Assembly (NCBI GenBank): GCA_016839515.1
Contig: JAEOUE010000209.1
Location: forward strand, 9,326-73,325
Direction: 5' to 3'
Length of the DNA: 64,000 nucleotides
Source: Candidatus Hodarchaeum mangrovi
GTDB lineage: Archaea > Asgardarchaeota > Heimdallarchaeia > Hodarchaeales > Hodarchaeaceae
Shown here piece by piece: positions 322 through 14,321 of the stretch. The position numbers and the translations under genes are program-made. Each line of letters begins with the position of its first letter. The stretch's first letter is position 1. Below the pieces are notes generated by a model. The model was not told the origin of the DNA. It was given only the letters and a program-made list of their open reading frames with translations, and did no database searches.

Positions 322-1128
322 CTAATTGAAATGAAATTCAATAGTTTTTTTCTCAGAATCAGCCCAAGACGCTCTTTTTGTTTCTACTAATAGTTTCATG
401 ATATTTTTAATGTCAGTTCCAGGTAAGGTCGACCAGCTTTGCTTCATTTGGATAATATCATATGCAGTGACCATTTCATACCCATTCTTGAATGCAAACT
501 CAAATAAATCGTCACAGTACGTTATTAGAGTCTTCCAATATATTCGTAACCGTGTTTTTTGCTCATCCCACCATTTTGCTTTGTTTATTTCTACTAAATA
601 ATCTGAAATAAGGATCAATTGAGGAATAGATAATTTCTTCTTTGTAAGTGTATTATAAAAAGGATAAACTAAGCTAATCTCTTGTAAATCAATAATATGA
701 AGATTCAGGATCCGTGCAAAATCTAAAATAAACTCACCCCAAGTGATTAACCACTGCTTTTTGTGTTCAATGTCATCTGGAACCATCCAACGCCAAGGTT
801 TATTTACCCATTGTGGTATAATCGGTTTAATTCTTGGGTCGATTTTACCAGGTTCCAATATAGGCTTTTGCAAAGTTTCGGTACTGATATCGTTCAATAT
901 AGACTCTTGAGAGGAAATTTCAGTATCAATTGTTTGATTAGATGGAGGAATTACTCTTTCTGATGAAAATGAGCTAAGATCTATTTTCTCTGTTTCAGGT
1001 TTTTCGGTTAAAGATTCATTTAATTGATTCATAACACTTTCTAAAACTTCAAAGGGTTCATTTTCTTTCTTTTTAACATCTGATTTCTCGCGTTTTCGTT
1101 GCATCTCAGCCATATACATCCAGCTCAC
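322..1128 (-). CDS. vps25: ESCRT-II subunit Vps25/EAP20 homologue with acidic N-terminal extension
   Basis: W-x2-FILDF, PFYN...KKLS and AKWWDEQKTRLRIYWKT match the tandem winged-helix Vps25 pattern; directly downstream of Vps4. Confidence 0.85.
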   Translation of the reverse strand: MSWMYMAEMQRKREKSDVKKKENEPFEVLESVMNQLNESLTEKPETEKIDLSSFSSERVIPPSNQTIDTEISSQESILNDISTETLQKPILEPGKIDPRIKPIIPQWVNKPWRWMVPDDIEHKKQWLITWGEFILDFARILNLHIIDLQEISLVYPFYNTLTKKKLSIPQLILISDYLVEINKAKWWDEQKTRLRIYWKTLITYCDDLFEFAFKNGYEMVTAYDIIQMKQSWSTLPGTDIKNIMKLLVETKRASWADSEKKTIEFHFN

Positions 1129-1152
1129 TGAACATGTACAGATTTTTGTACC

Positions 1153-2313
1153 TTATCCTCCGAATTTTTCTTTCCACTTTTCATATTCAACAAGCTCTTC
1201 AGGAGAAACAGATGGTTTAATATGAACCATAGATTGTGTGAAATCATCAATATTAGGTTTTCTGGGCTGAATTGAATGGTCTTTTAACGCCCCATCAGCA
1301 TCAAGCTCACGAATAGGATGCATTAATGCTTCACGACAGAGAAGTGCAATGTCTGCAGCAGTATATCCAGCTGTATAATCAGATAATTGACCAAAATCCA
1401 CATTAGAATCTAAAGCAACACCACGAGTGTGAATCTTAAACATAACCTCCCGTGCAGACTGATTAGGCAATCCTATATAAACTCTTCGTTCAAATCGACG
1501 CCTCATTGCTGCATCAATATCCCAAGGAGTATTTGTTGCTCCAATTGTAACAACTAATTCATCTCCAGTTCCAAATCCTTCAACTGCCTGAAGTAGCTGT
1601 GTTTTTACCCGACGCATGGCATCATGCTCGGAAGCACCCCCTCTTCTTCCAGCTAAGGCATCAATTTCATCAAAAAATATAATCGAGGGAGCTTCTTCTT
1701 CTGCACGGTCATAAAGCTCTTCAACTAACTTTTCAGATTCACCTAACCACTTACTGATCAAATTTGCAGCACTAACAGAAAAAAATGTAGAGTCCACCTC
1801 AGAGGCAACAGCTTTACACAGATAAGTTTTTCCACAGCCAGGAGGACCAAATAATAATATTCCTTTCCATGGTTTACGTGCTCCTTTAAATAAGTCAGGG
1901 CGACTCATAGGAAGAATAACTGCCTCTCTCAAGGCTCTTTTAGCTTCTATCATTCCCGCAACGTCCTCCCACTTCACATTTGGCTTTTCTCTGACAATTA
2001 CATCCGATATTGCACCTGTAATTTCATCCTCAGGCCCTGAAGATGCTGAAGAAGAAGGTGTTCCTTTTCCTTTACTTTTCCCTTCCGAGGGTTCAATTAT
2101 TCCTCTAATTTCTTTAACTCGTATAATATAAGACATTGCACGTTCGTAATATAACTTCTTCATATTTGGATCTTCTGTAAAATCTCGTAATTTATGCAGC
2201 TGCTCTGCAGCAGCTATATAGTATCGAATCGATTGATGAGATTGCCCACTTTGATCTAATTTATAGGCGATATTTGCGTTTTTTTTGGCTGCCTCAAACA
2301 ATGGACTAGACAT
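1153..2313 (-). CDS. vps4: Vps4 AAA+ ATPase with N-terminal MIT domain
   Basis: MIT-like helices (AYKLDQSG..YYIAAAEQL); EKPNVKWEDVAG; Walker A GPPGCGKT; SKWLGESEK; Walker B FFDEID; RRRFERR; Vps4_C tail YEKWKEKFG. Confidence 0.96.
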   Translation of the reverse strand: MSSPLFEAAKKNANIAYKLDQSGQSHQSIRYYIAAAEQLHKLRDFTEDPNMKKLYYERAMSYIIRVKEIRGIIEPSEGKSKGKGTPSSSASSGPEDEITGAISDVIVREKPNVKWEDVAGMIEAKRALREAVILPMSRPDLFKGARKPWKGILLFGPPGCGKTYLCKAVASEVDSTFFSVSAANLISKWLGESEKLVEELYDRAEEEAPSIIFFDEIDALAGRRGGASEHDAMRRVKTQLLQAVEGFGTGDELVVTIGATNTPWDIDAAMRRRFERRVYIGLPNQSAREVMFKIHTRGVALDSNVDFGQLSDYTAGYTAADIALLCREALMHPIRELDADGALKDHSIQPRKPNIDDFTQSMVHIKPSVSPEELVEYEKWKEKFGG

Positions 2314-2355
2314 AATGTATTCTCCTTAGATTAATCAAATTAGAAAATGAAGGAA

Positions 2356-2967
2356 TTAATCTTTCTTAATTTTTTCTAGTTCTTTTTGTAGCTCTTGAGA
2401 ACGAATATCTGGCGTTGGAAGCCCAAAATCTGCTGTAGCTACTTTTGAGGCACTAATTTCACCAATTATTTTTTCCACCATTTCATCTTCTTCAACATCA
2501 GAGGTCATCATTTCAAATCCCTCATCCATTGCATCAGTAGCAATATCAATTCTTTCGGTTTCTATCTCCATTTGTTGAAGAACTCCCTCTAATTGGGGGA
2601 TTTTCAGCTGAGTATTCATTTGATGAAGTGCTCTTACTAATCCTCTCAAGTCTTTTCCAATTGCTTGAGTTGCTGCTGCTTGTTCGAGTTTAAATTTAAT
2701 AGCTTTTACCCGGCTAGCCATCTGTTGGCATCCTCGGGCCATGGTACGATTTTTGGCTACATCTTTGGCTAATAAACGGGCGGTAGTCATATCTCCATCT
2801 TCGACAGCTTTTTCTACTTCCTTCAACATCTGTCTTTCTTCTTTAATCAGCTTATTTCGTTGGCGTGTCATTCTTTTTTCAACCATTCGAAGACGAACTA
2901 TCCACTTGCGTGTGTTTGTAGAACGATCTCCACCTCTAAGCCAGTTCCCGAATTTATCAAATACCAT
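2356..2967 (-). CDS. ESCRT-III, Vps2/24/46 class (ESCRT-IIIA)
   Basis: Basic N-half, acidic C-half; ARLLAKDVAKNR motif; C-terminal LPTP plus MIM1-like ELQKELEKIK. Confidence 0.92.
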   Translation of the reverse strand: MVFDKFGNWLRGGDRSTNTRKWIVRLRMVEKRMTRQRNKLIKEERQMLKEVEKAVEDGDMTTARLLAKDVAKNRTMARGCQQMASRVKAIKFKLEQAAATQAIGKDLRGLVRALHQMNTQLKIPQLEGVLQQMEIETERIDIATDAMDEGFEMMTSDVEEDEMVEKIIGEISASKVATADFGLPTPDIRSQELQKELEKIKKD

Positions 2968-2969
2968 TA

Positions 2970-3641
2970 TTAAGACCTCAATCCTTCTTCAATTTGTTTT
3001 CGCATTTCTTCCAATTTTTTCTTATCAGCTTCTTTGGTTGCAGAACTTTGAGTGCCTGTAGAGGAACTAATTGGAGAAGACACTGCTGGTTCTTTTTTTT
3101 CCTTAATAAATGATTCAGAAGCAATTTCAGCTTCTAATTCAGCCATTTGTTGAGAAATACGGTCTTCAGCTTCTACATCCATCCCAATTTCGGTAATAGA
3201 GGTATCTGTAAGTGCTTCATCCATATCTGAAACCATTTCGATTGAATCCTCTAATGCCATCATAACTTCCTCTGTTCGTTCTGGAGAAGCTGCAGCGATA
3301 TTAGCATCTATGGATGTTTGAGCATCAGATAGGGTCTGAGTAAGGGTTACATTATCTGCTGAAATATCTAGTGTATCTATCGTTCGTTGAAGATTTGAAA
3401 TTTTATTATAGCTGCTTGTTACTTGTGTTAAATATAATTCACGTCTTTTTAACGCTTGTTGAGCACCTTGTTTATTACCGCCCCTAAGTAGTGTTCGTGC
3501 AAGGTCATGTTGCTCATCTGCTTGGCGCTGATAATTTTTTATCTTAACTTCCATTTGATTAATCGTTCGTTTAAGCTTTGCCTTAGTTTCGGTTGAGCTT
3601 GAAGGTTTTTTTCCAGTTAAGAATCCTTTAATTCTTTTCAA
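2970..3641 (-). CDS. ESCRT-III, Vps20/32/60 (Snf7) class (ESCRT-IIIB)
   Basis: GNKQGAQQALKRRELY Snf7 signature; charge-bipartite coiled coil; TTG start. Confidence 0.92.
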   Translation of the reverse strand: MKRIKGFLTGKKPSSSTETKAKLKRTINQMEVKIKNYQRQADEQHDLARTLLRGGNKQGAQQALKRRELYLTQVTSSYNKISNLQRTIDTLDISADNVTLTQTLSDAQTSIDANIAAASPERTEEVMMALEDSIEMVSDMDEALTDTSITEIGMDVEAEDRISQQMAELEAEIASESFIKEKKEPAVSSPISSSTGTQSSATKEADKKKLEEMRKQIEEGLRS

Positions 3642-3856
3642 AGAAGTATCATCTCTTCTAATTGTTATTATATATAAGTCCTTAAAATATATTATATAAG
3701 TTCATGTCACTTTCAGGTAGGCTTCTTATTAAGACTTCCTATAAGTACTATATAACTCCCTTCTACAGATATGGTATATCCAAATTATGATTTTCCTCTT
3801 AATGATAATAGTAAAGACCTGTGTCCAATGATAATAATTAACATTAACGTATCAGA

Positions 3857-4591
3857 TCAAATTGCAGGGAACGAAATGGTTAATCCATCAAGGGAATCGG
3901 ATTTAATTGCAATACGCTGCTTTATTAGAGAATCTAACGCATTATTAACCCTTTCTATAGTCCATGAGGTTTTTCTCAACAATTCAGATAATCCAATCTC
4001 ACCATTATATTGAGCTGCGAGTTCTAATATCACTTGGTGATCATCAGATAGTTTTGGATCCAAAAATTCAACAATTTTTATTCCAGCTAGTTTTTTAATT
4101 GCATGTATCATTCCATTTTCTTCAAGCATCTTCAGGGCAGAATTCATATCATTTATTGAGATTGTAATCCCTTTACTTTCATCATTAAGTCGTGTAAGCA
4201 ATTCAGAAACGCTTAATAATCCTCCAGTTTGAAGCCTTGTGTTTTTCCCAATTTCTATAATTCTTAGGCTTAAATAATTCAGATAATCATCTTTTCCCTT
4301 TAATTTATCTATTATCCCTGGTTTTTTCCCTACCTCATAGATTCCAAGAGCTTGTGGAAGACCTAACTCCTCTCGAATTATCATTAGACGTTGAGCCAAT
4401 TGTGGATTTTTCTTGAAATCTCCTTCATAGGTTTTTTCCAATTTTTGAAGCTCATCATGAAGCTGATGGACTTTTTGACTTAATTCTTCAAGGGATTTAA
4501 GCGCAAGTTTTGTACCTTTTCTTTTCAATTCAGCTTCTTGTGTGATTTTCTCTTCAATTCTTCGTAATCCCATTGGTTTAGCATTCCTCAT
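3857..4591 (-). CDS. vps22: ESCRT-II subunit Vps22/EAP30 homologue
   Basis: GLRRI N-terminus, DYLNYLSLRIIEIG, TGGLLSVSEL, LSDDHQVILELA, WTIERVNNALDSL. Confidence 0.92.
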   Translation of the reverse strand: MRNAKPMGLRRIEEKITQEAELKRKGTKLALKSLEELSQKVHQLHDELQKLEKTYEGDFKKNPQLAQRLMIIREELGLPQALGIYEVGKKPGIIDKLKGKDDYLNYLSLRIIEIGKNTRLQTGGLLSVSELLTRLNDESKGITISINDMNSALKMLEENGMIHAIKKLAGIKIVEFLDPKLSDDHQVILELAAQYNGEIGLSELLRKTSWTIERVNNALDSLIKQRIAIKSDSLDGLTISFPAI

Positions 4592-4950
4592 TTTTTTTGA
4601 TAGAGGTCACTCGTTAGAAATCTATGTTAAGATCTTTATATTTCTTTACAATTCGGTACAAAAAAAAGAGCCTTTATAGGAAATTTTCCTGAATAGGGGT
4701 TATAATTGATCATTCTAATTTAATTAACTATCCTTTTCTCCTGATTAATACGAAGTACTTCATTTTTGTGTTTTTCGTTGAAATAATCAGTTTTTCTTTA
4801 AATTTACTACAAGATCATTTATTTTAAGTCTTTAATTTATATATAATCAACTTTTACAAAAAATTATAGGGATAATACACAACATATTATGCTAAGATTT
4901 TCTTTCCTTATAAAGACAGTTTTCAGTTAAATGTTTAGGTTTGGATCAGA

Positions 4951-6297
4951 ATGGTACTTGATCTTAGTTTCAGCTCAGCTCCTATTTATTGTTCATTCTG
5001 TGGTACCATGATAATTGATTCAAACTCTAAAAAATGTTTGGAATGCGAAGCTTCCTTCTGTGCTAAATGTAGTGCTAATCTTCAGATAAATGGTTCTGCT
5101 CTTCAATGTCCATGTGGATCAAATAATATTGAAGATTATGGATCAAATAATAGCAATACAGCCCAATCTCTAGAACACGTTTTTGAACTTAAACGTTCGC
5201 TTAAACAAATGGCATATAGACCAGTGGTGGCCCTTAAAAGAACAGGTCAGTTAGAATTACGCCTCCGATCTCTTCGAAAACAGTTCTTAATCCCACGTCA
5301 TCATTTAGACAAGATTTTCTTAGAGACAAAAAAAATTGAAAATTTCATTTTGGAGGAGTTTTTCTCTTATTCAGAAAAATTACATCGTATATATCGTTCT
5401 GTTCTTGGATTCGATTCAGGATTCTCCGATCTTCGAAATATTTCAATGCAATTCACTCTTTTTGAAAAGCAAATTACAAGTTTTGACCAAACCGTCCAAA
5501 CCAAACTCGATCCTATTCAAGATTTAATTCACGAACTTGAAACTATATGTAATTCGTTTGAAGACATGGCAAAAAAATTATCGAGTTGTTTTGATATATT
5601 CTTCCTAGTTCCAGGAGAACTAGGGATTGGATACTTTTCAGATATTGATCTTAAGAAAAATAGAAGCCGTAAGAAAACAATTGACCTTGCTATTACTACT
5701 GATCGTATTGTGATGCTTCAAAATAAACGTTATAAAGTGTTTAGTAATAAAGCAATTATTTTTGATGAATTTCCTCCTGAAGATTTAATTGATGTGCAAA
5801 AATCGAATTCAGGATTCTTTAAACGAGATGAATTGTCAATAACGACAATCCAGCAGGATTACATACTTCGGGCTGAGTCTACTATCTTATTACGTATCTT
5901 TGATTCACTTCAAGTAAGTTATTATGGACGACCAAGTGAGTTATATATATATGAACCTTTTCGGGACTGGTCTTCAGAAAATTATCAAGAAAAAATATTA
6001 AATGCTTTAAATTTTCAGATAGATTCCAGTAGAGATGCAAAAATTCATTCTGAAACACCAAACCAACATGATAAAGATCCAGAATTCGTGATTGGTGTTT
6101 TGCAAGATAGACTTCGTGATCTAAGAATTCGAAAACTAGCAAATGAAAAAGCTTTGCAGGAGTTGAAAGAAGGAAGAAAAAAAGTCCATAGTCGCGAATA
6201 TTTCGATCTCGTAAGACAATTTGAGCTGGAATTAGCAAAATTGAATGAGGAGATTACAGAATTACTAATCAGAACAGGAAAAACAAATATTTTATAG
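4951..6297 (+). CDS. Uncharacterised ESCRT-locus protein: 8-Cys Zn finger, coiled coil, PH-like domain, C-terminal helical hairpin
   Basis: CSFC..CLEC..FCAKC..CPC; heptad region at ~aa 70-210; LAITTDRIVML...LIDVQK..GFF..ELSITT PH-like pattern; C-terminal hairpin. Confidence 0.75.
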   Translation: MVLDLSFSSAPIYCSFCGTMIIDSNSKKCLECEASFCAKCSANLQINGSALQCPCGSNNIEDYGSNNSNTAQSLEHVFELKRSLKQMAYRPVVALKRTGQLELRLRSLRKQFLIPRHHLDKIFLETKKIENFILEEFFSYSEKLHRIYRSVLGFDSGFSDLRNISMQFTLFEKQITSFDQTVQTKLDPIQDLIHELETICNSFEDMAKKLSSCFDIFFLVPGELGIGYFSDIDLKKNRSRKKTIDLAITTDRIVMLQNKRYKVFSNKAIIFDEFPPEDLIDVQKSNSGFFKRDELSITTIQQDYILRAESTILLRIFDSLQVSYYGRPSELYIYEPFRDWSSENYQEKILNALNFQIDSSRDAKIHSETPNQHDKDPEFVIGVLQDRLRDLRIRKLANEKALQELKEGRKKVHSREYFDLVRQFELELAKLNEEITELLIRTGKTNIL

Positions 6298-6300
6298 ACT

Positions 6301-6930
6301 TTATAGATTGGTTAATTCCCGTCTGAAATTTGATAACCAACGGGACGCCTGTAATTCAAGTTTTTTAAGCTCATCAGTCTTTAATAATTGACCTGGTTTT
6401 TGGCGATCCATCCAACCAATCCATTGACTTATATCTTGAGTTACCCAATGATCTTTTCCATATATTTTAAGATTAGTTAATATAGATGCTAATTCATCTA
6501 AATATGGTAATATTCGATCTACTGTTGCAATTGCCTCTAAATGTAGTAAATCTAGGAGTTCGATTGTATTGGCCACAAAATCAGCAGCAATTGCTGGCAA
6601 TCTTTTTATTTGGCTATAATCGATTTGATTCAACGGATTATCAGCATCACCTTCAGTTCTTCGTACTTTTTCTAAACCGAAAGGAAATTTGGACTCCATT
6701 GCCTCTTTTTTGATGAAATCATCCAAATTGAAATGGTATTGGTCTAGTGCTGCCCGAGTTTCAACAATACTGGATAAAAGGTTTTTGAATTGCTTATGAT
6801 AGATATTTGGATCAATTTCACCTTTCTCAAATGTTCGTGAAAGAAGATCAAGTGTACCAATATCAGCATAAAGTCTAGCTTCTAGTTCCCATCGTTTCTT
6901 TAAATTCGGTGGAAAGGTCATTTGTGTCAT
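6301..6930 (-). CDS. vps28: ESCRT-I subunit Vps28 homologue
   Basis: ARLYADIGTLDLLSRTFEKGEIDPNIY and FVANTIELLDLL..VDRILPYLDEL match the Vps28 N and C domains; coupled to vps23. Confidence 0.9.
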   Translation of the reverse strand: MTQMTFPPNLKKRWELEARLYADIGTLDLLSRTFEKGEIDPNIYHKQFKNLLSSIVETRAALDQYHFNLDDFIKKEAMESKFPFGLEKVRRTEGDADNPLNQIDYSQIKRLPAIAADFVANTIELLDLLHLEAIATVDRILPYLDELASILTNLKIYGKDHWVTQDISQWIGWMDRQKPGQLLKTDELKKLELQASRWLSNFRRELTNL

Positions 6931-6931
6931 C

Positions 6932-7666
6932 TTATCCTATATAATCAAGTTCTTTTCGGATTAAGTATAAGTCTTTGGAATATTTTTTATACAGACGGGA
7001 ATATTCAAAAATTGATATTTCTCCAGCTGCATAACGATCCTCAAGAGAGGCTAATAATTCAGAAATTGCTATACGTTCTGATTCTAAATCGTCCTTGGTT
7101 GATCTTTGGGGTCGTTTTTCCTCGCCTAAACTTTCAGTTTGAACCATCTGTCGTGCGCGCAATCTCGCTAGCTCTTCTTCTTTTTCCTGTAGAGTTTGGT
7201 TTAAATTGATGAGTTCTTTGCGTAACGAATCGGTCTCTGCATTAACTGTAGGTTCGATATAACGAGGAGGTGACTCTGTGATTTTGATTACAGTATCCCG
7301 TACGGATCTAGCAGTTTCACCACGTGGAGCAGGTGGAACACGGGACATTAGATTTTTCAATGCTATTATAACTTGATATAAATGAAATTCCGCCCGCCAA
7401 TTTTCTAAGATTCGTAATTGAACAAATCCATCCTCATCGATATTTGGATGATCCATCCAACCCACTGCTGTGACAACAGGAGGAACATTAGGAAAATATT
7501 CAGGTAGAAATATCTCAAAGGTGAACATATTTCGACCACGACTCGTTGTATATGTCAAAGTGCCTTGCCATTTGGCAAGAGAATCCTCAACAGGATTGAA
7601 ACCTGATGCAGCAGTGTTGGAATAAACTAATTGTGCTTCACGCGCGAGTATAAAGTCTCTATCCAT
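6932..7666 (-). CDS. vps23: ESCRT-I subunit Vps23/TSG101 homologue (UEV + coiled coil + steadiness box)
   Basis: E2-like fold IFLPEYFPNVPP..HPNIDEDGFVQL lacking catalytic Cys; coiled coil; steadiness box LEDRYAAGEISIFEYSRLYKKYSKDLY. Confidence 0.92.
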   Translation of the reverse strand: MDRDFILAREAQLVYSNTAASGFNPVEDSLAKWQGTLTYTTSRGRNMFTFEIFLPEYFPNVPPVVTAVGWMDHPNIDEDGFVQLRILENWRAEFHLYQVIIALKNLMSRVPPAPRGETARSVRDTVIKITESPPRYIEPTVNAETDSLRKELINLNQTLQEKEEELARLRARQMVQTESLGEEKRPQRSTKDDLESERIAISELLASLEDRYAAGEISIFEYSRLYKKYSKDLYLIRKELDYIG

Positions 7667-7891
7667 TTTTTTAACTCCTAACCTCGGTTTTATTTACAAT
7701 ACCAATCTGAGGAGGTTTTTTTCGAGTATTTTAAACGATTCAGATCATGTATATTTAATTTAATGAACCTTAAAAAAGACTCACAATAAGGAATGGGAAT
7801 ATTCCTAATTATCCTTTGTTAAGGATTTATTACCTCACAGGTTTCTTAATACATGAAATATTTAATTTTTTTTCTTCAATGAATATTTAAT

Positions 7892-9133
7892 TTAATTTTT
7901 CTTTTTTAAAGGATTTGCTAGGAAATTTAATAATTCTTGTCCTAAAAGTTCAAATGCATATTCGATATTTAACCCTGTCTTTGCACTTGTTGGGAGATAA
8001 TAGATTTTAAATCCTCGATATTGCTTTGAAATTTGTGATAAACGACCAACAAAAATTCTTGCTTTTTCTTCAGAGACACAATGAATTGTACCATCGCAAA
8101 GATCAGTTTTATTTCCAAGAATCACAAGTGGGACAGGACCACGTCCATTACTCTTCCAGAGCTCATTCATCCATAAAACAATATTCTGAAAACTATCAGG
8201 TCTGGTAACATCAAATACGGCAAGTGCTCCAATTGCTGTAGTATAATAAGCCATACGAACTCCATCAAACCGTGGTTGCCCTGCTAAATCCCAGATTACG
8301 TATTTAATTCTTTTCCCACCAGCATAAATCAAAGATGATTTTTTTACTGCCAAATCGGCCCCAATAGTCATTTGATAATCATGTCGAAAGCCTTCTCCAA
8401 GATAATGTCTACGAATGGATGTTTTCCCAACAGCACCATCACCAATTAATATTATTTTTAGAGTGTGCTCTTCTTGGACAAAATTGGCTTTTGCAGACTC
8501 TATTAACTGCTCTAATGCTCTACTTAATTCCTTATTAATTGAAGGTATTTGCTCTGGATAAAGCTTCAAGACTTCAACAATCTGGAAAGCTAAAGGAGCT
8601 GCTTTATCACGTGGTACAAATTTAGAGGTTATGATTGAAATAATAAAATCTTGAATGATGAAGAAATGTATCGTTTGATTTTCAAGGGAAAGTTCCTCAA
8701 GCATTTTACCTAATTTGTGATGAACATAATTATTAATTGCATTTAAGATAAAACCAGTAGTTTCTTTATAATCGTTGCTAACCTCAGAGGGAAATTCAAA
8801 TAAACATTTGCCATTCTGTTTGTAGCAGGAAATGAAATGAATTTCTTCTACTTTTTCTGGTTTTTCTAACCCAAATTTGCGAAATTCCTCTATTTCTTTT
8901 TTACTAGCCATTTCCCCCTCTGAATAAACAGTTTGCAATAAATTTAAATAATCGCTACGTCCTGACAATGCTTCTTCCAAATCAACTTGAATTTTTAACT
9001 GAAACTCTTCCATTTCACTGGCAATTGATTCGTCTAAAACTCGGTCTTCTAGAGATTGTTTCTTTTTTCTTTGTAAAGTATTAAAGGACGAGAGTTTTTC
9101 TTTCATTGACCGAATTCTCCGGAGTTTTTTCAA
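7892..9133 (-). CDS. Longin-domain / Rab-like small GTPase fusion
   Basis: G1 GDGAVGKT, G2 YQMTIG, G3 WDLAGQ, G4 NKTD, G5 TSAK; RabF-like IGADL/KYVIW/YYTTA/VFDVT; central longin-like segment. Confidence 0.85.
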   Translation of the reverse strand: MKKLRRIRSMKEKLSSFNTLQRKKKQSLEDRVLDESIASEMEEFQLKIQVDLEEALSGRSDYLNLLQTVYSEGEMASKKEIEEFRKFGLEKPEKVEEIHFISCYKQNGKCLFEFPSEVSNDYKETTGFILNAINNYVHHKLGKMLEELSLENQTIHFFIIQDFIISIITSKFVPRDKAAPLAFQIVEVLKLYPEQIPSINKELSRALEQLIESAKANFVQEEHTLKIILIGDGAVGKTSIRRHYLGEGFRHDYQMTIGADLAVKKSSLIYAGGKRIKYVIWDLAGQPRFDGVRMAYYTTAIGALAVFDVTRPDSFQNIVLWMNELWKSNGRGPVPLVILGNKTDLCDGTIHCVSEEKARIFVGRLSQISKQYRGFKIYYLPTSAKTGLNIEYAFELLGQELLNFLANPLKKKN

Positions 9134-9288: not shown

Positions 9289-10356
9289 TTATTTACCTTT
9301 TAAAAAAACTGACTCAATTTTTGTAAACAACCAAGGGATAATTAGAGCTAAAGTAAAAGCTAAAATGAAATAAGAGCAATAGTCTACTAAAGTACTCACC
9401 CAAGGTACTATACTTTGAGAATTTTCAAATAATCCAGAAACCTTATCCGTAAAAAAGTAAAGTAATACAACTGAAGTGAATCCTATAATTATTCGTATGA
9501 GTAAACTTACTGGTTGCCTTCCATAGATTTTAAAATTAATATATTGGTCTTCAAAAACCTTTCCAACTATAATTCCACCAAAGATACCAGGGTACACTCC
9601 TAAATCACTGTTGTTCCAAAGATCTGTAACGAGTGCACTTCCAAATAGAAAAGTAGTTAAATAAACAACTCCAAATCCTAGAATAACTAAGATTATACTA
9701 CTTAAAAAGCCCAAAAATATCTTTACTTTGTCTGATTTTTGTGTATAATAACTTCCATATCGCTTATCAATTTGAACATACAATAAAGCTACCAGAATAC
9801 CAACGACAACTCCAATAATTATATCACTAGGCCAATGTACACCTAAATAGCTTCTACTGAGAGGTATGGATATTAATAATACTAATCCTAAAACTAGAAT
9901 TGAAAAATTCCTATATTTCTGGAAAACAAATCCCCATAAGGTTCCTTGAGTTTGAGAATGTCCAGAAGGAAATGAATATCCACTAGCACTCCACGTAGTT
10001 TCTCGTAATATTTGTGTAGTAACCTTAAATTTCTCATCATATATATAAGGACGAGGATTATGAAAAAATATCTTCAATATTGAGTTTAAACAAGCTGATA
10101 ACGTAATTAGATAAATTATTTTTAACATATATTCCTTATTATAAGTATAATAGAGTAGTACCATTACTATAAGAATTGGTAGTGTATTTCCAAATGTGGT
10201 TACAACTCCAAAGTAAAAATCTATAATATCATTAGAAAAGCTTTGAATAAATTCGAGTATTTGTTCACCAAATAAACCAAGGATTAGATCAGACAATTTA
10301 TCACAGCCTTTTATTGCTTTGACACTGAAAATTCTTTCAAAACGCTCAATTACCAT
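9289..10356 (-). CDS. PAP2-family membrane lipid phosphatase
   Basis: KIFFHNPRP, FPSGH and SRSYLGVHWPSD catalytic motifs; multiple TM helices. Confidence 0.92.
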   Translation of the reverse strand: MVIERFERIFSVKAIKGCDKLSDLILGLFGEQILEFIQSFSNDIIDFYFGVVTTFGNTLPILIVMVLLYYTYNKEYMLKIIYLITLSACLNSILKIFFHNPRPYIYDEKFKVTTQILRETTWSASGYSFPSGHSQTQGTLWGFVFQKYRNFSILVLGLVLLISIPLSRSYLGVHWPSDIIIGVVVGILVALLYVQIDKRYGSYYTQKSDKVKIFLGFLSSIILVILGFGVVYLTTFLFGSALVTDLWNNSDLGVYPGIFGGIIVGKVFEDQYINFKIYGRQPVSLLIRIIIGFTSVVLLYFFTDKVSGLFENSQSIVPWVSTLVDYCSYFILAFTLALIIPWLFTKIESVFLKGK

Positions 10357-10582: not shown

Positions 10583-11329
10583 ATGTCAGAATCTGAATCA
10601 TTAGTTTGCCCTAATTGTAGTGAACGAAGTCCTGCAGGATATATTCTTTGTCCTTATTGTGGATTCGATTTGACTAAGATTGTTAAAGCCGCCCAACGAG
10701 TCCGAATAACTTTTAAAGAAAGCTTTTCTCGTATTTGGAGAGGATTTTTTGACCCTCGTCAAAGTAAAGGACTATTCAATGAGGTTGGGGCTAATCCTGA
10801 CAGAAGAGGGGCAATTTTAACTTTAATACTGGTATCAATGGCTTATGCGAGTCGAATTGGAGTTTATGCTATTAAAGTCTCAAGCACCACCTGGCATGAT
10901 TTTCATTTCTGGTATGCTTTATTTTTTCCATTTGTTGTCTGGCCTGCCTTCTTTTTATTAGCTCTTTTTGCTTGGTTTATCCTTAGTACTGCTATATGGC
11001 TTCTGGCAAAAACTTTAGGGGGAAAAGCAGGATATCGGGAAACAATGAGCGTTGTTGGCTACTCAGTAAGTCCACTTATTTCTGGATCACTCATCATCAG
11101 TCTTATTATTGTTCTTATCGGACCACCAATCAGTAGTATAACCTCAATAACTTCAGATCAATTCATACTTTTCGAATTTTTATATCTCCCATTCATTGCT
11201 TTGGCTGCTTACCATTGTGGAAACGGATTAAGGGCATCCCATCTTCTAAGCGAGCCATATTCCTACTCAATTAGTGGTTTAATGGCATTATTATTTATTA
11301 TCTTCTATCTACTCCCCTTGATACTGTAA
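10583..11329 (+). CDS. Yip1-family membrane protein with N-terminal zinc ribbon
   Basis: CPNC...CPYCG; about 5 TM helices; LAKTLGGKAGYRETMSVVGYSVSP Yip1 motif. Confidence 0.85.
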   Translation: MSESESLVCPNCSERSPAGYILCPYCGFDLTKIVKAAQRVRITFKESFSRIWRGFFDPRQSKGLFNEVGANPDRRGAILTLILVSMAYASRIGVYAIKVSSTTWHDFHFWYALFFPFVVWPAFFLLALFAWFILSTAIWLLAKTLGGKAGYRETMSVVGYSVSPLISGSLIISLIIVLIGPPISSITSITSDQFILFEFLYLPFIALAAYHCGNGLRASHLLSEPYSYSISGLMALLFIIFYLLPLIL

Positions 11330-11383: not shown

Positions 11384-12379
11384 TTAATTCAGATATATTT
11401 TAAATTTTAATGGCATTGGGATTGAAGGATCAATCACCCGAAATATTTCTCCGTTATGAAATTCAGTTCCCATTAGTGCATCTGTTATAACCATATGTTG
11501 GGTTTCGTACAGGATTTTTATTTCAAGCCCAAGATTAAAAGAATATCTTAATTGTTCAATAAAATCAGAAAATCTTTGATCTTTAGAAGAATAAACTGGT
11601 ATAATGTCTAAATGATAGGTATCGGAGCATACAAAACATGTTTTTCTCCTTTTGAGTGGTACAGATGTGAATTGACCAGATTCTCCGTCCCAAAATAAGA
11701 AATTATTCATTGTTGGGATGCCATTGATAATTTTTAAGGCCTCTTGTGCCATTAATCCTCCAATGACTAACGAGACACTGGATACAGATGGGATAAATTT
11801 TTTTTCTTCAACCACCTCCCGAATTTCCTTTCTTCCCTCACCAAAAGGTGTACAAGCTTTTTGTAGCTCCTGTTCTGGGATTAAAGATTGACATTCTAAA
11901 CACGGGGTATGATAAGGAATGACAACTTGGATATTACCGAGGAATCCATACATTCCTCCAGATATCAAAGGAATTTTTGCTTTCACTGTGAACGCATTTA
12001 ACCATCTACGAACTTTAAATGTATCTAATCCTTCAACTATAACATTAGATGTTGTTAAAAGATCATGAGGTACTTTTTCAATTGCATTTTTTATTACTTC
12101 AATCTCAATAGAAGGATTTATGGCTCTCAGTGCTTTAGCGGCAACATTTACCTTCGGTTTTCCAACATCATCCTCATAATAGAAAAGTTGCCGATTAAGG
12201 TTACTTACTTCAATTGTGTCAAAATCTATCAAAATTAATTTTCCTACTCCAGCCATTGCAAGTGAAGCAGCAACAACTGTTCCTAGAGCTCCAAGACCAA
12301 CAATAGTAACTGTACTTTCTTTTATTCTTGTTTGGTCCCAATTTTCAATCAATAATTGACGTGCATAGCGATCAGTCAT
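11384..12379 (-). CDS. Ubiquitin-activating enzyme E1 (ThiF/UBA family)
   Basis: RYARQ, GLGALG, SNLNRQ, Zn motifs CLEC/CFVC, catalytic-Cys motif KACT, C-terminal UFD-like region; follows ubiquitin. Confidence 0.92.
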   Translation of the reverse strand: MTDRYARQLLIENWDQTRIKESTVTIVGLGALGTVVAASLAMAGVGKLILIDFDTIEVSNLNRQLFYYEDDVGKPKVNVAAKALRAINPSIEIEVIKNAIEKVPHDLLTTSNVIVEGLDTFKVRRWLNAFTVKAKIPLISGGMYGFLGNIQVVIPYHTPCLECQSLIPEQELQKACTPFGEGRKEIREVVEEKKFIPSVSSVSLVIGGLMAQEALKIINGIPTMNNFLFWDGESGQFTSVPLKRRKTCFVCSDTYHLDIIPVYSSKDQRFSDFIEQLRYSFNLGLEIKILYETQHMVITDALMGTEFHNGEIFRVIDPSIPMPLKFKIYLN

Positions 12380-12423: not shown

Positions 12424-12663
12424 CTACCTTTTCCCACCAGTGGTTCGTGTAATCATGTACAGCTTATCATGTTCTTGAATCCCAGCTGTCTTTAAAGTTT
12501 CGCTCTCATCAAGTTGTTTTCCTTGAAAGACTAGAATAACGGTTCCTGGAGGGATTCTATTTTCACTAGCAACTCTTCTTTTAATTGCTGCTATAGAATC
12601 AGTCATTTCACATTCAAGAGGTATTTCTCTACCGCCAATTGCCTGAACAATAGTGATTTGCAT
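12424..12663 (-). CDS. Ubiquitin (pro-form, GG followed by KR)
   Basis: MQITI...IPPGTVILVFQGKQLDESETL..GIQ..RTTGGKR; ATG at 12663 is the likely start (GTG at 12672 possible). Confidence 0.93.
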   Translation of the reverse strand: MQITIVQAIGGREIPLECEMTDSIAAIKRRVASENRIPPGTVILVFQGKQLDESETLKTAGIQEHDKLYMITRTTGGKR

Positions 12664-12800
12664 GTTCTTCACTCAAATATTCGCATTGTAAAAGATTTGT
12701 GAGTTACACTTCATCTCTGCCTTTTAAAATATATGGAATGGGGTACACAAATTATATACTAAATAACTCTATCGAATTTTTTCTAATCGAAAGGATAGAT

Positions 12801-13589
12801 TTAATCATCTTCTGGTTCAATAAAACTGATTCCATCATTTGTAATTTCATAGCGTAGAGTTTTAGTCGTGTGATTAGTACCACGCATCTTAGTGATTCGA
12901 AGGATTCGCATCATTTCCCCACGAACAGAAAGCATATCAAGATGAAAAATAGAATCGGCAATATACTCTTCTCCAAACAAGGTATGATCAGAGGTACTTG
13001 ATAATTCTGATATTGCTATTGTAGTAACGTTTAAGGCAGCAATATTTGCCAAAAATCCAGTTGCTAATTTTCTTAAAAAACCATAGTCATTTCCATAATC
13101 ATAAAATCTAAATGCAGCTAGGGGATCTATTACTATTCGTTCAATTTTCTTTTCCTCTACTTTTTGGGATATTAAATAAAAAATTTTATGTAAGAAAGTA
13201 GGTAATGATGTCTCATCATAGGGAACCCCTTCTACATCCAACATCAATTCAGTATCCTCACTATACGAAAGACTATCAGGATCCCATAATTCCCATCCAG
13301 ATGGCGTAAAGTCAAGCATGATTACTTTTTCAGGTTCTGCAAAATAATTGTGATCGAAAAAAGAAAAAGAACTTGCATCTCGTCGTATAGCCCATGGTGG
13401 TTCTTGCATTGCTACTAATAATCCATTTTCATTTCGACGAGCTCCATCAAAGAGAAAATGTAATCCAAAAATTGTCTTACCTGCTCCTGCAGGTCCTATT
13501 AGCAAATTAGTAGTTCCTTTGATAAAACCACCTTGAGTATAAGCATCAATAAATGGTATTCCTGTTGTTACGCGCACACGTTCAAACAA
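12801..13589 (-). CDS. KaiC/RAD55-family ATPase (single domain)
   Basis: RVTTGIP, GPAGAGKT, RIVID, EEYIADSI, ITKMRGT. Confidence 0.92.
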   Translation of the reverse strand: MFERVRVTTGIPFIDAYTQGGFIKGTTNLLIGPAGAGKTIFGLHFLFDGARRNENGLLVAMQEPPWAIRRDASSFSFFDHNYFAEPEKVIMLDFTPSGWELWDPDSLSYSEDTELMLDVEGVPYDETSLPTFLHKIFYLISQKVEEKKIERIVIDPLAAFRFYDYGNDYGFLRKLATGFLANIAALNVTTIAISELSSTSDHTLFGEEYIADSIFHLDMLSVRGEMMRILRITKMRGTNHTTKTLRYEITNDGISFIEPEDD

Positions 13590-13757: not shown

Positions 13758-14321
13758 TCACTTTTGATAGTTAATATTCTGCTTACTAGCTTCTAGCTGT
13801 TCAATAAAGTACCGAAATGCTGATTCCAAATTTTCACCACTTCTTATTCCACCAGGATCAGCTGCTACTGTTCCAAAAATAAAGTAGTTTCTCTTTTGAA
13901 GTTTTTGAAGTAAAAAATGCCTTTTAAAAAAGTCTGGATATAGAGCATTTGGTAAATCTTGCTTATTAGCTATAATAAGAATCGGTATATTTTCAGAAAT
14001 AAGTTCCAACGCATCTTGTAGCCATTGTTCATCATATTTAAAATCACGACGGGAACTGTCAATAACAAAGACCAATCCATCTGCGTTTTTGACAAATCTT
14101 TCATGATAACGCATATCTAGGAATTTCCTCTGACCCCCAACATCAATTAAACTGATAACTGATCCATCTAAAACAACATGACTAATTCCGAAAGCAATTG
14201 TAGGCCTGATGTTGCTAGGTGGAGGATAACCATGCTCAAGATAAAATGCGATGGAAGATTTACCTACACCACTAGTTCCTAATAAAACAACTGAATAAAT
14301 TGTTTTAGATGGTAATTCCAT
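13758..14321 (-). CDS. Arf-related small GTPase
   Basis: GTSGVGKS, PTIAF, DVGGQ, ANKQDLP; no Gly2. Confidence 0.88.
   Translation of the reverse strand: MELPSKTIYSVVLLGTSGVGKSSIAFYLEHGYPPPSNIRPTIAFGISHVVLDGSVISLIDVGGQRKFLDMRYHERFVKNADGLVFVIDSSRRDFKYDEQWLQDALELISENIPILIIANKQDLPNALYPDFFKRHFLLQKLQKRNYFIFGTVAADPGGIRSGENLESAFRYFIEQLEASKQNINYQK

Follow-up and report, generated by a model that had tools for sequence, protein, structure and literature searches.

The closest described relatives of the protein considered here form a family of Asgard archaeal proteins that Makarova 2024 (mBio, PMC10936438) set out, as Znr_PH_CC_SB, with three zinc ribbons, a PH domain, a coiled coil and a steadiness box. 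In that account, the family is lacking in eukaryotes and probably ancestral in Asgard archaea, is 'a likely ESCRT-I component' (ESCRT, endosomal sorting complexes that are required for transport) and carries a PH domain 'expected to be membrane associated'. It is also called Znr_CC_PH_SB (the name used hereafter) or 'PH domain and steadiness box', and includes the asCOGs cog.011556 and cog.002586, the first of which is mentioned 50 times in Table S2 of that paper as Znr_CC_PH_SB. For the roles of bringing Asgard ESCRT to membranes and of a possible third ESCRT-I subunit, this family is the main computational candidate (Makarova 2024). Here, we describe a 448-residue protein of Candidatus Hodarchaeum mangrovi (Asgardarchaeota, Hodarchaeales), encoded among the ESCRT genes of a 64,000-nucleotide stretch of DNA (hereafter the window; GenBank assembly GCA_016839515.1, contig JAEOUE010000209.1, positions 9,326 to 73,325 of the forward strand), where its gene lies between vps22 and vps28.

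Two published observations frame the comparison. First, Hatano 2022 (PMC9192718) reported that Asgard genomes lack ESCRT-0, Vps36 and Vps37, and that free-standing steadiness-box proteins of Loki and Thor, which may or may not belong to Znr_CC_PH_SB, showed yeast two-hybrid contacts with Vps28 and Vps22. Second, the text of Makarova 2024 describes the Hodarchaeia as having none of the varied ESCRT domain architectures; its Table S2 includes one Hodarchaeota genome, in which the orthologue of the window gene is cog.007434, 'Uncharacterized domain', which is not ESCRT-flagged, lies between the Vps28 and Vps22 genes with the coordinates of our locus L014 and is an asCOG that occurs once in that table. 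A full-text search for literature on Asgard ESCRT with a PH domain, zinc ribbon and steadiness box returned only Makarova 2024, no bench work on the Znr_CC_PH_SB family was found in the literature, and, among the papers listed on Hodarchaeales ESCRT from 2023 on, no title or abstract start was about this protein.

Judged from its sequence along the full length, the protein is the Hodarchaeales form of Znr_CC_PH_SB, reduced by one zinc ribbon. Both the family and the idea of an ESCRT-I adaptor were already published, with the Hodarchaeales branch left unassigned; new here is only the placement in a known family of that branch, which is short of one zinc ribbon, divergent in its hairpin and relocated to the ESCRT-I/II block. 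A preliminary description of the window had proposed a single protein that combines a steadiness-box hairpin with membrane-targeting modules. Most of what that description reported from the sequence holds, two points needing qualification. The combination is plausible and matches the proposal of Makarova 2024, and to that extent is not new; membership in the Vps37, Vps36 or FYVE (ESCRT-0) families, to which the protein had been likened, found no backing, as set out below.

Family assignment

The gene encodes a protein of four parts, a zinc module, a set of long helices, a PH domain and a C-terminal helical hairpin, for which no Pfam or NCBIfam match was found above threshold. When a profile built from Hodarchaeales sequences was compared with Pfam and the PDB, only sub-threshold zinc-finger matches were obtained. 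A search of 5.8 billion proteins returned 52 homologues (48-93% identity), all of them from Heimdall/Hodarchaeales-type metagenome genomes and, where named at all, labelled 'hypothetical' or 'zinc ribbon domain-containing'. The open reading frame (ORF) is a real gene. A 379-residue database version of the protein is 100% identical over 85% of the ORF, and this shorter call would drop the zinc finger; the 448-residue reading is supported because the eight upstream cysteines are conserved in orthologues.

The protein is homologous over its full length to the published family. In an hhalign comparison, an alignment of 38 Hodarchaeales sequences matched an alignment of seven Asgard proteins of ~500 residues (hereafter the broad family) with a probability of 98.9 (E = 1.4e-17, 423 columns), residues 9-446 aligning with 4-483 and the extra zinc ribbon of the longer proteins appearing as an insertion. 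The published name reaches this set through a Baldrarchaeota protein, 72% identical to members of the seven-sequence set, that is cog.002586 and ESCRT-flagged in Table S2 of Makarova 2024, so that the sequence link runs via a cog.002586 relative. Distant relatives of 409-565 residues (E 1e-32 to 5e-9), one of them from Heimdallarchaeota LC_3, came from a profile search that covered 1.84 billion representatives. With a wider profile, 82 of 400 Asgard genomes were matched: 21 belonged to the genus of the window and gave full-length matches, 35 more had matching ORFs of ~400-600 residues (E 1e-4 to 8e-75, part of the helical/PH region being covered in 34), and the remaining 26 gave short zinc-finger or hairpin matches only and were not counted as relatives. 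Family ORFs were matched by the wide profile at E 1e-9 to 1e-26. Broader searches were less informative: a word-indexed search with the seven-sequence alignment found only nine close, unnamed relatives, and the ESM Atlas gave, as leads only, Asgard clusters of 519-698 residues (in one of which 13% of the proteins had bPH_3) and, at a score of 0.81, a bacterial GRAM/Vps36 cluster.

The ~500-residue ORFs carry six CxxC pairs, a helical region, a PH domain and a canonical Asgard steadiness box. Among the seven broad-family members, Pfam recognized bPH_3 in five, with a best E of 5.9e-6 and one match exceeding the curated cut-off, GRAM in four and Vps23_core in five (best E 3.1e-6). The window protein shares with the family its module order (a Cys-rich zinc module first, then long helices, a PH domain and, at the C-terminus, a hairpin that in the family is a steadiness box), the spacing of the first four Cys pairs, an ESCRT neighbourhood and the same predicted role. 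It differs in having four Cys pairs rather than six, the third zinc ribbon (pairs 5-6) being missing; in a CxC rather than CxxC fourth knuckle; in being ~50 residues shorter, with a hairpin loop three residues shorter; in a hairpin whose divergence escapes both Pfam Vps23_core and direct profile comparison; and in the location of its gene between vps22 and vps28, whereas the family gene usually lies tail to tail with an ESCRT-III gene. The features that place it in the family are full-length homology, an N-terminal zinc-ribbon module (here reduced), a PH domain after the helical region and the ESCRT neighbourhood. In some distant relatives the fingers are degenerate, with 0-3 Cys pairs, and in a quick, unfinished tree with many long branches the two-zinc forms grouped together (SH-aLRT 99). 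Searched with the broad profile, the 91%-complete window genome yielded no second copy of the canonical, three-ribbon kind.

Genomic neighbourhood

The gene is the only one on the plus strand among the ESCRT genes, all other ESCRT-related ORFs (322 to 9133) being on the minus strand. It converges on vps28, whose stop codon occupies 6301-6303, so that 3 bp separate the two reading frames (Table 1). A scan of species-representative genomes yielded 20 related Hodarchaeales loci with a relative of the gene, one chance match on a Bacteroidales contig having been set aside, and across these its placement in the ESCRT-I/II block is fixed: it adjoins vps28 in all 20, vps22 lies upstream in every locus that reaches so far, vps23 follows vps28 in 19, and the GTPase gene lies beyond vps23 in 18 (the other two loci end before that position). 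Identity to the window protein ranged from 46 to 65% across the 20 loci, compared with 57-88% for its neighbours. The spacer between vps22 and the gene is usually 0.2-0.45 kb and is enlarged in two loci, to ~2.6 kb (L005:4363-7001) and ~1.5 kb (L018:789-2330), by insertion into the divergent promoter region.

Neighbourhoods of the wider family were sampled in 20 ORFs from 20 genomes of 13 other Asgard families (~8 kb on each side, chosen from the wider-profile list). Of the 20 loci, 16 had a Snf7-family gene within that distance, and in 14 this gene was the immediate neighbour, in tail-to-tail orientation and less than 500 bp away; several loci also had Vps4, Vps25, Vps22 or Vps28/Vps23, and two of the four loci without a Snf7 gene were contigs of less than 6 kb. 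Because a Snf7 gene recurs in 16 of 20 loci from other families, the linkage to ESCRT is old and independent of Hodarchaeales synteny. Conservation of the neighbourhood, which the preliminary description had proposed as a check, is accordingly strong, both in the 20 Hodarchaeales loci and in this sample. In two genomes of another family of the same class, the zinc/PH/steadiness-box gene lies ~1.2 kb from Snf7 genes in a cluster that also holds a 470-residue ORF matching both Vps23 and Vps28 profiles (L056:14755-16164 and L057:405-1814); this ORF seems to represent the UEV-Vps23-Vps28 fusion that Hatano 2022 described in Heimdallarchaeota AB_125.

Predicted fold and its parts

An AlphaFold2 model was built on the 38-sequence alignment (mean predicted local distance difference test score, pLDDT, 79.6), and conservation was taken as mean column identity in the same alignment. 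What the preliminary description called a long coiled coil is resolved by the model into three long helices (Table 1), the first two with column identities of 0.85 and 0.81. The PH region is modelled as a seven-stranded sandwich with a capping helix (225-325). Behind it, a conserved helix has nine residues that are invariant in the 38 sequences (R338, D339, W340, S342, E343, Q346, E347, L350 and N354), of which W340 is near-invariant in the wide alignment too; pLDDT reaches 92 at residues 341-350. The hairpin (column identity 0.83-0.84) and the tail after it (0.92) are among the best conserved parts, and the two helices of the hairpin that had been pointed out from the sequence are both present in the model.

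In an all-against-representatives structural search, residues ~208-329 matched PH folds: the MTMR2 PH-GRAM domain (1lw3_A; score 13.3, 2.8 Å over 109 residues), a Leishmania C-terminal domain of unknown function (4tyz_B; 12.3, 2.4 Å over 107), the TAPP1 PH domain (1eaz_A; 12.1, 2.7 Å over 99), Sec3 (3hie_A; 11.2, 2.9 Å over 113) and the EAP45 GLUE domain (2dx5_A; 11.0, 2.9 Å over 97). On these matches, the earlier call of a PH/GRAM-like segment was right, and the segment is a genuine PH fold. Its nearest relatives are of the GRAM and bacterial-PH types; GLUE is one of many equally good matches, no better than dozens of other PH domains. In the loop between the first two strands, the only well-conserved basic residues are R240 and K/R241.

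The zinc module has eight cysteines (residues 14, 17, 29, 32, 37, 40, 53 and 55, in the motifs CSFC, CLEC, CAKC and CPC), and every orthologue with a residue at these columns has Cys there (32-37 of 38 rows; the rest are gaps). The FYVE domain binds phosphatidylinositol 3-phosphate through the motifs WxxD, R(R/K)HHCR and RVC, and these motifs are lacking in the zinc module. There is no His in residues 1-70, and therefore no R(R/K)HHCR patch, which agrees with the eight-Cys finger lacking that patch in the preliminary description; the residues that precede Cys29 are S-K-K (consensus Q-K). A structural search with the module, which was modelled with moderate confidence (pLDDT 69.7), gave RING, ZZ, B-box and U-box domains as the closest matches, all weak, and no FYVE domain among the top 50. 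Pfam FYVE scored weakly, under the cut-off, in nine of 18 family members (best E 3.2e-3) and had no match to the window protein at E <= 1. The finger does resemble that of Vps27/Hrs in its eight Cys for two zinc ions and in the 'C-x-x-C-G-x-x-F-C-x-x-C' core of the family consensus, but it has no His, no basic patch, and no accompanying VHS or UIM modules. A FYVE-type, ESCRT-0 identity is thus not supported; on the model, the module looks like a generic cross-brace finger of the RING/ZZ/B-box kind.

The C-terminal hairpin

Sliced alignments were compared pairwise by hhalign. The hairpin of the broad family matched both the steadiness box of Hodarchaeales Vps23 (E 1.3e-6, probability 91) and the N-terminus of Vps28 (E 7.9e-7, probability 92), and a hairpin profile built from five Hodarchaeales rows and 16 of the broad family had as its top matches, among all PDB sequences, the yeast Vps23 chains of the ESCRT-I core (2p22_A, E 1.8e-4; 2f66_A, 1.3e-3; 2caz_A, 5e-3), followed by TSG101 (6vme_B, 0.052) and CdvA (9s9i_A, 1.4). 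When the broad seven-sequence profile (positions 374-480) was run over the window genome, its sole match at E <= 0.01 was the C-terminal stalk and steadiness box of Vps23 (6932-7250, minus strand; E 3e-6). On these sequence comparisons, the steadiness-box assignment is solid for the broad family.

For the window protein, the corresponding assignment would rest on position. Its hairpin aligns with that of the broad family in the full-length hhalign comparison; taken alone, the two hairpins match weakly (E 3.8e-4, probability 36), and neither the Vps23 steadiness box (E 0.062) nor the Vps28 N-terminus (E 0.071) of the same genomes is matched significantly. The parallel that had been drawn between this hairpin and the steadiness box of the neighbouring Vps23 therefore holds via intermediate family members and is not significant when drawn directly. 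On hairpins of 60 residues, hhalign is a weak instrument, because the two genuine boxes of the lineage, those of Hodarchaeales Vps23 and Vps28, barely detect each other (E 1.2e-3); as a negative control, either hairpin against the Vps28 C-terminal domain gave E 0.25-0.48.

Comparison with Vps37 and Vps36

The absence of a Vps37, Vps36 or ESCRT-0 gene from the window, as noted in the preliminary description, agrees with a scan of 11 ORFs against Pfam. When the genome as a whole was searched, Mod_r and Vps36 GLUE models matched nothing at E <= 0.01, a result to be read with the low sensitivity of such models here, because Vps23_core missed the genome's own Vps23 and the GLUE controls likewise matched nothing. 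The protein itself has no Pfam Mod_r match at E <= 1, no EAP30 match and, in the AlphaFold2 model, no winged-helix domains.

We therefore rejected the protein as a member of the Vps37 (Mod_r) family, for which no signature was seen in the protein or the genome, and of the Vps36 family, for which the EAP30 match, the winged-helix fold and the Pfam GLUE signature are all missing. The likeness to Vps37 is that the protein could contribute the third hairpin to a head trimer; unlike Vps37, it has a disordered linker, not a stalk helix, directly before the hairpin, and carries zinc and PH modules. Its zinc module stands at the N-terminus, whereas that of Vps36/EAP45 is inserted in the PH domain.

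Table 1. Location in the window of the gene, of the parts of its product and of neighbouring genes (residue numbers refer to the 448-residue protein; identity is mean column identity)
Feature	Positions	Strand	Basis or description
Target gene, 448 residues	4951..6297	+	ATG-started ORF; zinc module, three helices, PH domain, steadiness-box-like hairpin
Zinc module, eight Cys, binuclear, residues ~10-63	4978..5139	+	C-x2-C-x11-C-x2-C-x4-C-x2-C-x12-C-x-C; identity 0.68
Three long helices, 66-106, 116-151 and 161-212	5146..5586	+	Predicted helical bundle leading into the PH domain
PH domain, GRAM / bacterial-PH type, residues ~215-330	5593..5940	+	Identity 0.73
Conserved post-PH helix, residues ~336-355	5956..6015	+	'RDWSSE.YQEKIL..LNF'; identity 0.84; modelled helix 343-353
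Variable disordered linker, residues 358-376	6022..6078	+	pLDDT <50; identity 0.35; length differs in distant relatives
C-terminal helical hairpin, 378-407 and 414-442, then tail	6079..6294	+	Tail 'TGKTN(I/L)L'; putative divergent steadiness box
Vps25	322-1128	-	Pfam
Vps4	1153-2313	-	Pfam
First Snf7-family gene	2356-2967	-	Pfam
Second Snf7-family gene	2970-3641	-	Pfam
vps22 (EAP30 family), divergent neighbour	3857..4591	-	Pfam EAP30, E 4.5e-22
Divergent AT-rich spacer between vps22 and target, 359 bp	4592..4950		ORF list
vps28, convergent neighbour	6301..6930	-	Pfam VPS28, E 8.6e-12
vps23 (UEV/E2-like domain and C-terminal steadiness box)	6932..7666	-	Pfam UQ_con, E 1.6e-14; UEV, E 9.1e-5
Ras-like GTPase with N-terminal extension	7892-9133	-	Pfam
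Multi-pass membrane protein	9289-10356	-	
Zinc-ribbon membrane protein	10583-11329	+	
ThiF-type E1	11384-12379	-	Pfam
Ubiquitin	12424-12672	-	Pfam
KaiC-like ATPase	12801-13589	-	
Small Arf-like GTPase	13758-14321	-	

Other genes of the cluster

Beyond the ESCRT genes, several ORFs have features of their own (Table 1). The GTPase beyond vps23 is Ras/Roc-like, and its N-terminal extension of ~215 residues has no Pfam match. Between it and the E1 gene lies a membrane protein whose N-terminus carries a CxxC...CxxC zinc ribbon; this protein is kept in every locus that reaches so far, and its orthologue is labelled Yip1 family in Table S2 of Makarova 2024; the multi-pass membrane protein beside it varies between loci in orientation and similarity (either strand, 29-56% identity). 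After the ubiquitin gene come a KaiC-like ATPase and a small Arf-like GTPase, a pair that also lies beside ubiquitin in the Hodarchaeota genome of the same table.

Proposed role and alternatives

On balance, and by a modest lean, we favour the reading that this Hodarchaeales member of Znr_CC_PH_SB docks by its hairpin on early ESCRT complexes and brings them to the membrane by its PH domain. The hairpin would act as a steadiness box, packing against those of Vps23 and Vps28, or against that of Vps22, and this packing would tether the protein to early ESCRT complexes. With possible help from the zinc module, the PH domain may bind the membrane or a membrane-proximal or ubiquitin-linked ligand, and the protein would in this way bring ESCRT-I/II to the budding site. 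One chain could then do the work of Vps37 (the third hairpin of the head) together with that of the Vps36 GLUE or ESCRT-0 FYVE domain (membrane targeting), from outside those families. We infer both the partner of the hairpin, be it Vps23/Vps28, Vps22 or ESCRT-III, and the binding of lipid by the PH domain.

Several observations weigh against this proposal. The comparisons of the window-family hairpin with Vps23, Vps28 and the broad-family hairpin were non-significant or weak, as given above; the broad seven-sequence profile did not match the protein at E <= 0.01 when run over its own genome; and the 25 Pfam families listed for 18 Hodarchaeales-type sequences do not include Vps23_core. For the putative membrane binding, the loop of the PH domain offers only two well-conserved basic residues, and the net charge of the domain, +2 here, ranges from 0 to +12 in orthologues. 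Most lineages have the gene next to an ESCRT-III gene and not next to ESCRT-I genes. Finally, the Odinarchaeota head trimer consists of a Vps23 dimer and one Vps28 (Hatano 2022), so that a third subunit is not required.

An alternative that we consider unlikely is that the protein stands in for Vps36, its hairpin docking on the N-terminal helical, steadiness-box-like part of Vps22 and its PH and zinc modules replacing the membrane and ubiquitin binding of GLUE and NZF. The gene is divergently paired with vps22 across their shared spacer; Asgard genomes are without Vps36 and a Loki steadiness-box protein, which may or may not be a family member, bound Vps22 in yeast two-hybrid assays (Hatano 2022); and Vps22 of Asgard archaea is described as fused to a steadiness box (Makarova 2024). 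Set against these are the unexceptional rank of GLUE among the PH matches, the failure of the Pfam GLUE model to match anything in the genome (as it failed on the controls) and the lack of winged-helix domains in the protein.

The neighbourhoods of the wider family could suggest a different partner. As CdvA recruits CdvB in Thermoproteota, the PH domain could bind the membrane and the protein could recruit a Vps20-type ESCRT-III subunit directly, bypassing or paralleling ESCRT-I/II. The tail-to-tail Snf7-family ORF in 14 of the 20 sampled loci is usually most like the second Snf7 gene of the window, Makarova 2024 reported HHpred similarity of the steadiness-box hairpin to CdvA, and CdvA does appear in our hairpin-profile list, though only at E 1.4. 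The same profile matches Vps23 far better (E 1.8e-4), however, and the Hodarchaeales gene lies away from the ESCRT-III genes, between vps22 and vps28; no CdvA-type winged-helix-binding peptide was seen, although no search aimed at one was made. We regard such direct recruitment as quite unlikely for the window protein.

Very improbable, in our estimation, is that the protein is a component of the ubiquitin system, its RING/ZZ-like zinc module binding an E2 or the UEV domain of Vps23, or acting as an E3, to mark or read cargo with no part in membrane targeting: the cluster does encode ubiquitin, an E1 and a UEV/E2-like protein, and the structures most like the module, although only weakly so, are the RING, U-box and ZZ domains found in ubiquitin ligases and autophagy receptors, but the module is the least conserved folded part of the protein and is degenerate in some distant relatives.

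The DH domain of exchange factors has about six major helices. That the three helices and the PH domain make up a DH-PH-like (RhoGEF-like) exchange factor for the neighbouring Ras-like GTPase, as might be thought from the whole-model Foldseek search, in which all top matches were DH-PH tandems (E 1e-6 to 6e-5), and from the GTPase gene, with its extension, after vps23 in 18 of 20 loci, is extremely improbable given the low TM-scores (TMq 0.18-0.25, TMt 0.12-0.33), a root-mean-square deviation of 17-25 Å, VIA-align scores for the tandems no higher than for PH domains alone, the presence of only three helices and the lack of a Pfam RhoGEF match at E <= 1. On the predicted model, we read these matches as a long helix running into a PH domain, with no DH domain.

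Significance for Asgard ESCRT

With the Hodarchaeales gene placed in Znr_CC_PH_SB, the statement of Makarova 2024 that Asgard-specific multidomain ESCRT proteins are lacking in that lineage needs amending. Hodarchaeales have been proposed as sister to eukaryotes (Eme 2023), and a lineage so placed keeps a Znr_CC_PH_SB gene inside its ESCRT-I/II block. As a long shot, this single chain may preserve an ancestral arrangement, in which the hairpin joins the Vps23/Vps28 head while the PH domain and zinc finger bind membrane or ubiquitin, the Vps37 hairpin and the Vps36 GLUE/NZF modules being its split descendants or functional heirs. Were that so, the fact that Hodarchaeales have kept it in their ESCRT-I/II block would open the origin of the 'missing' early-ESCRT subunits to testing.

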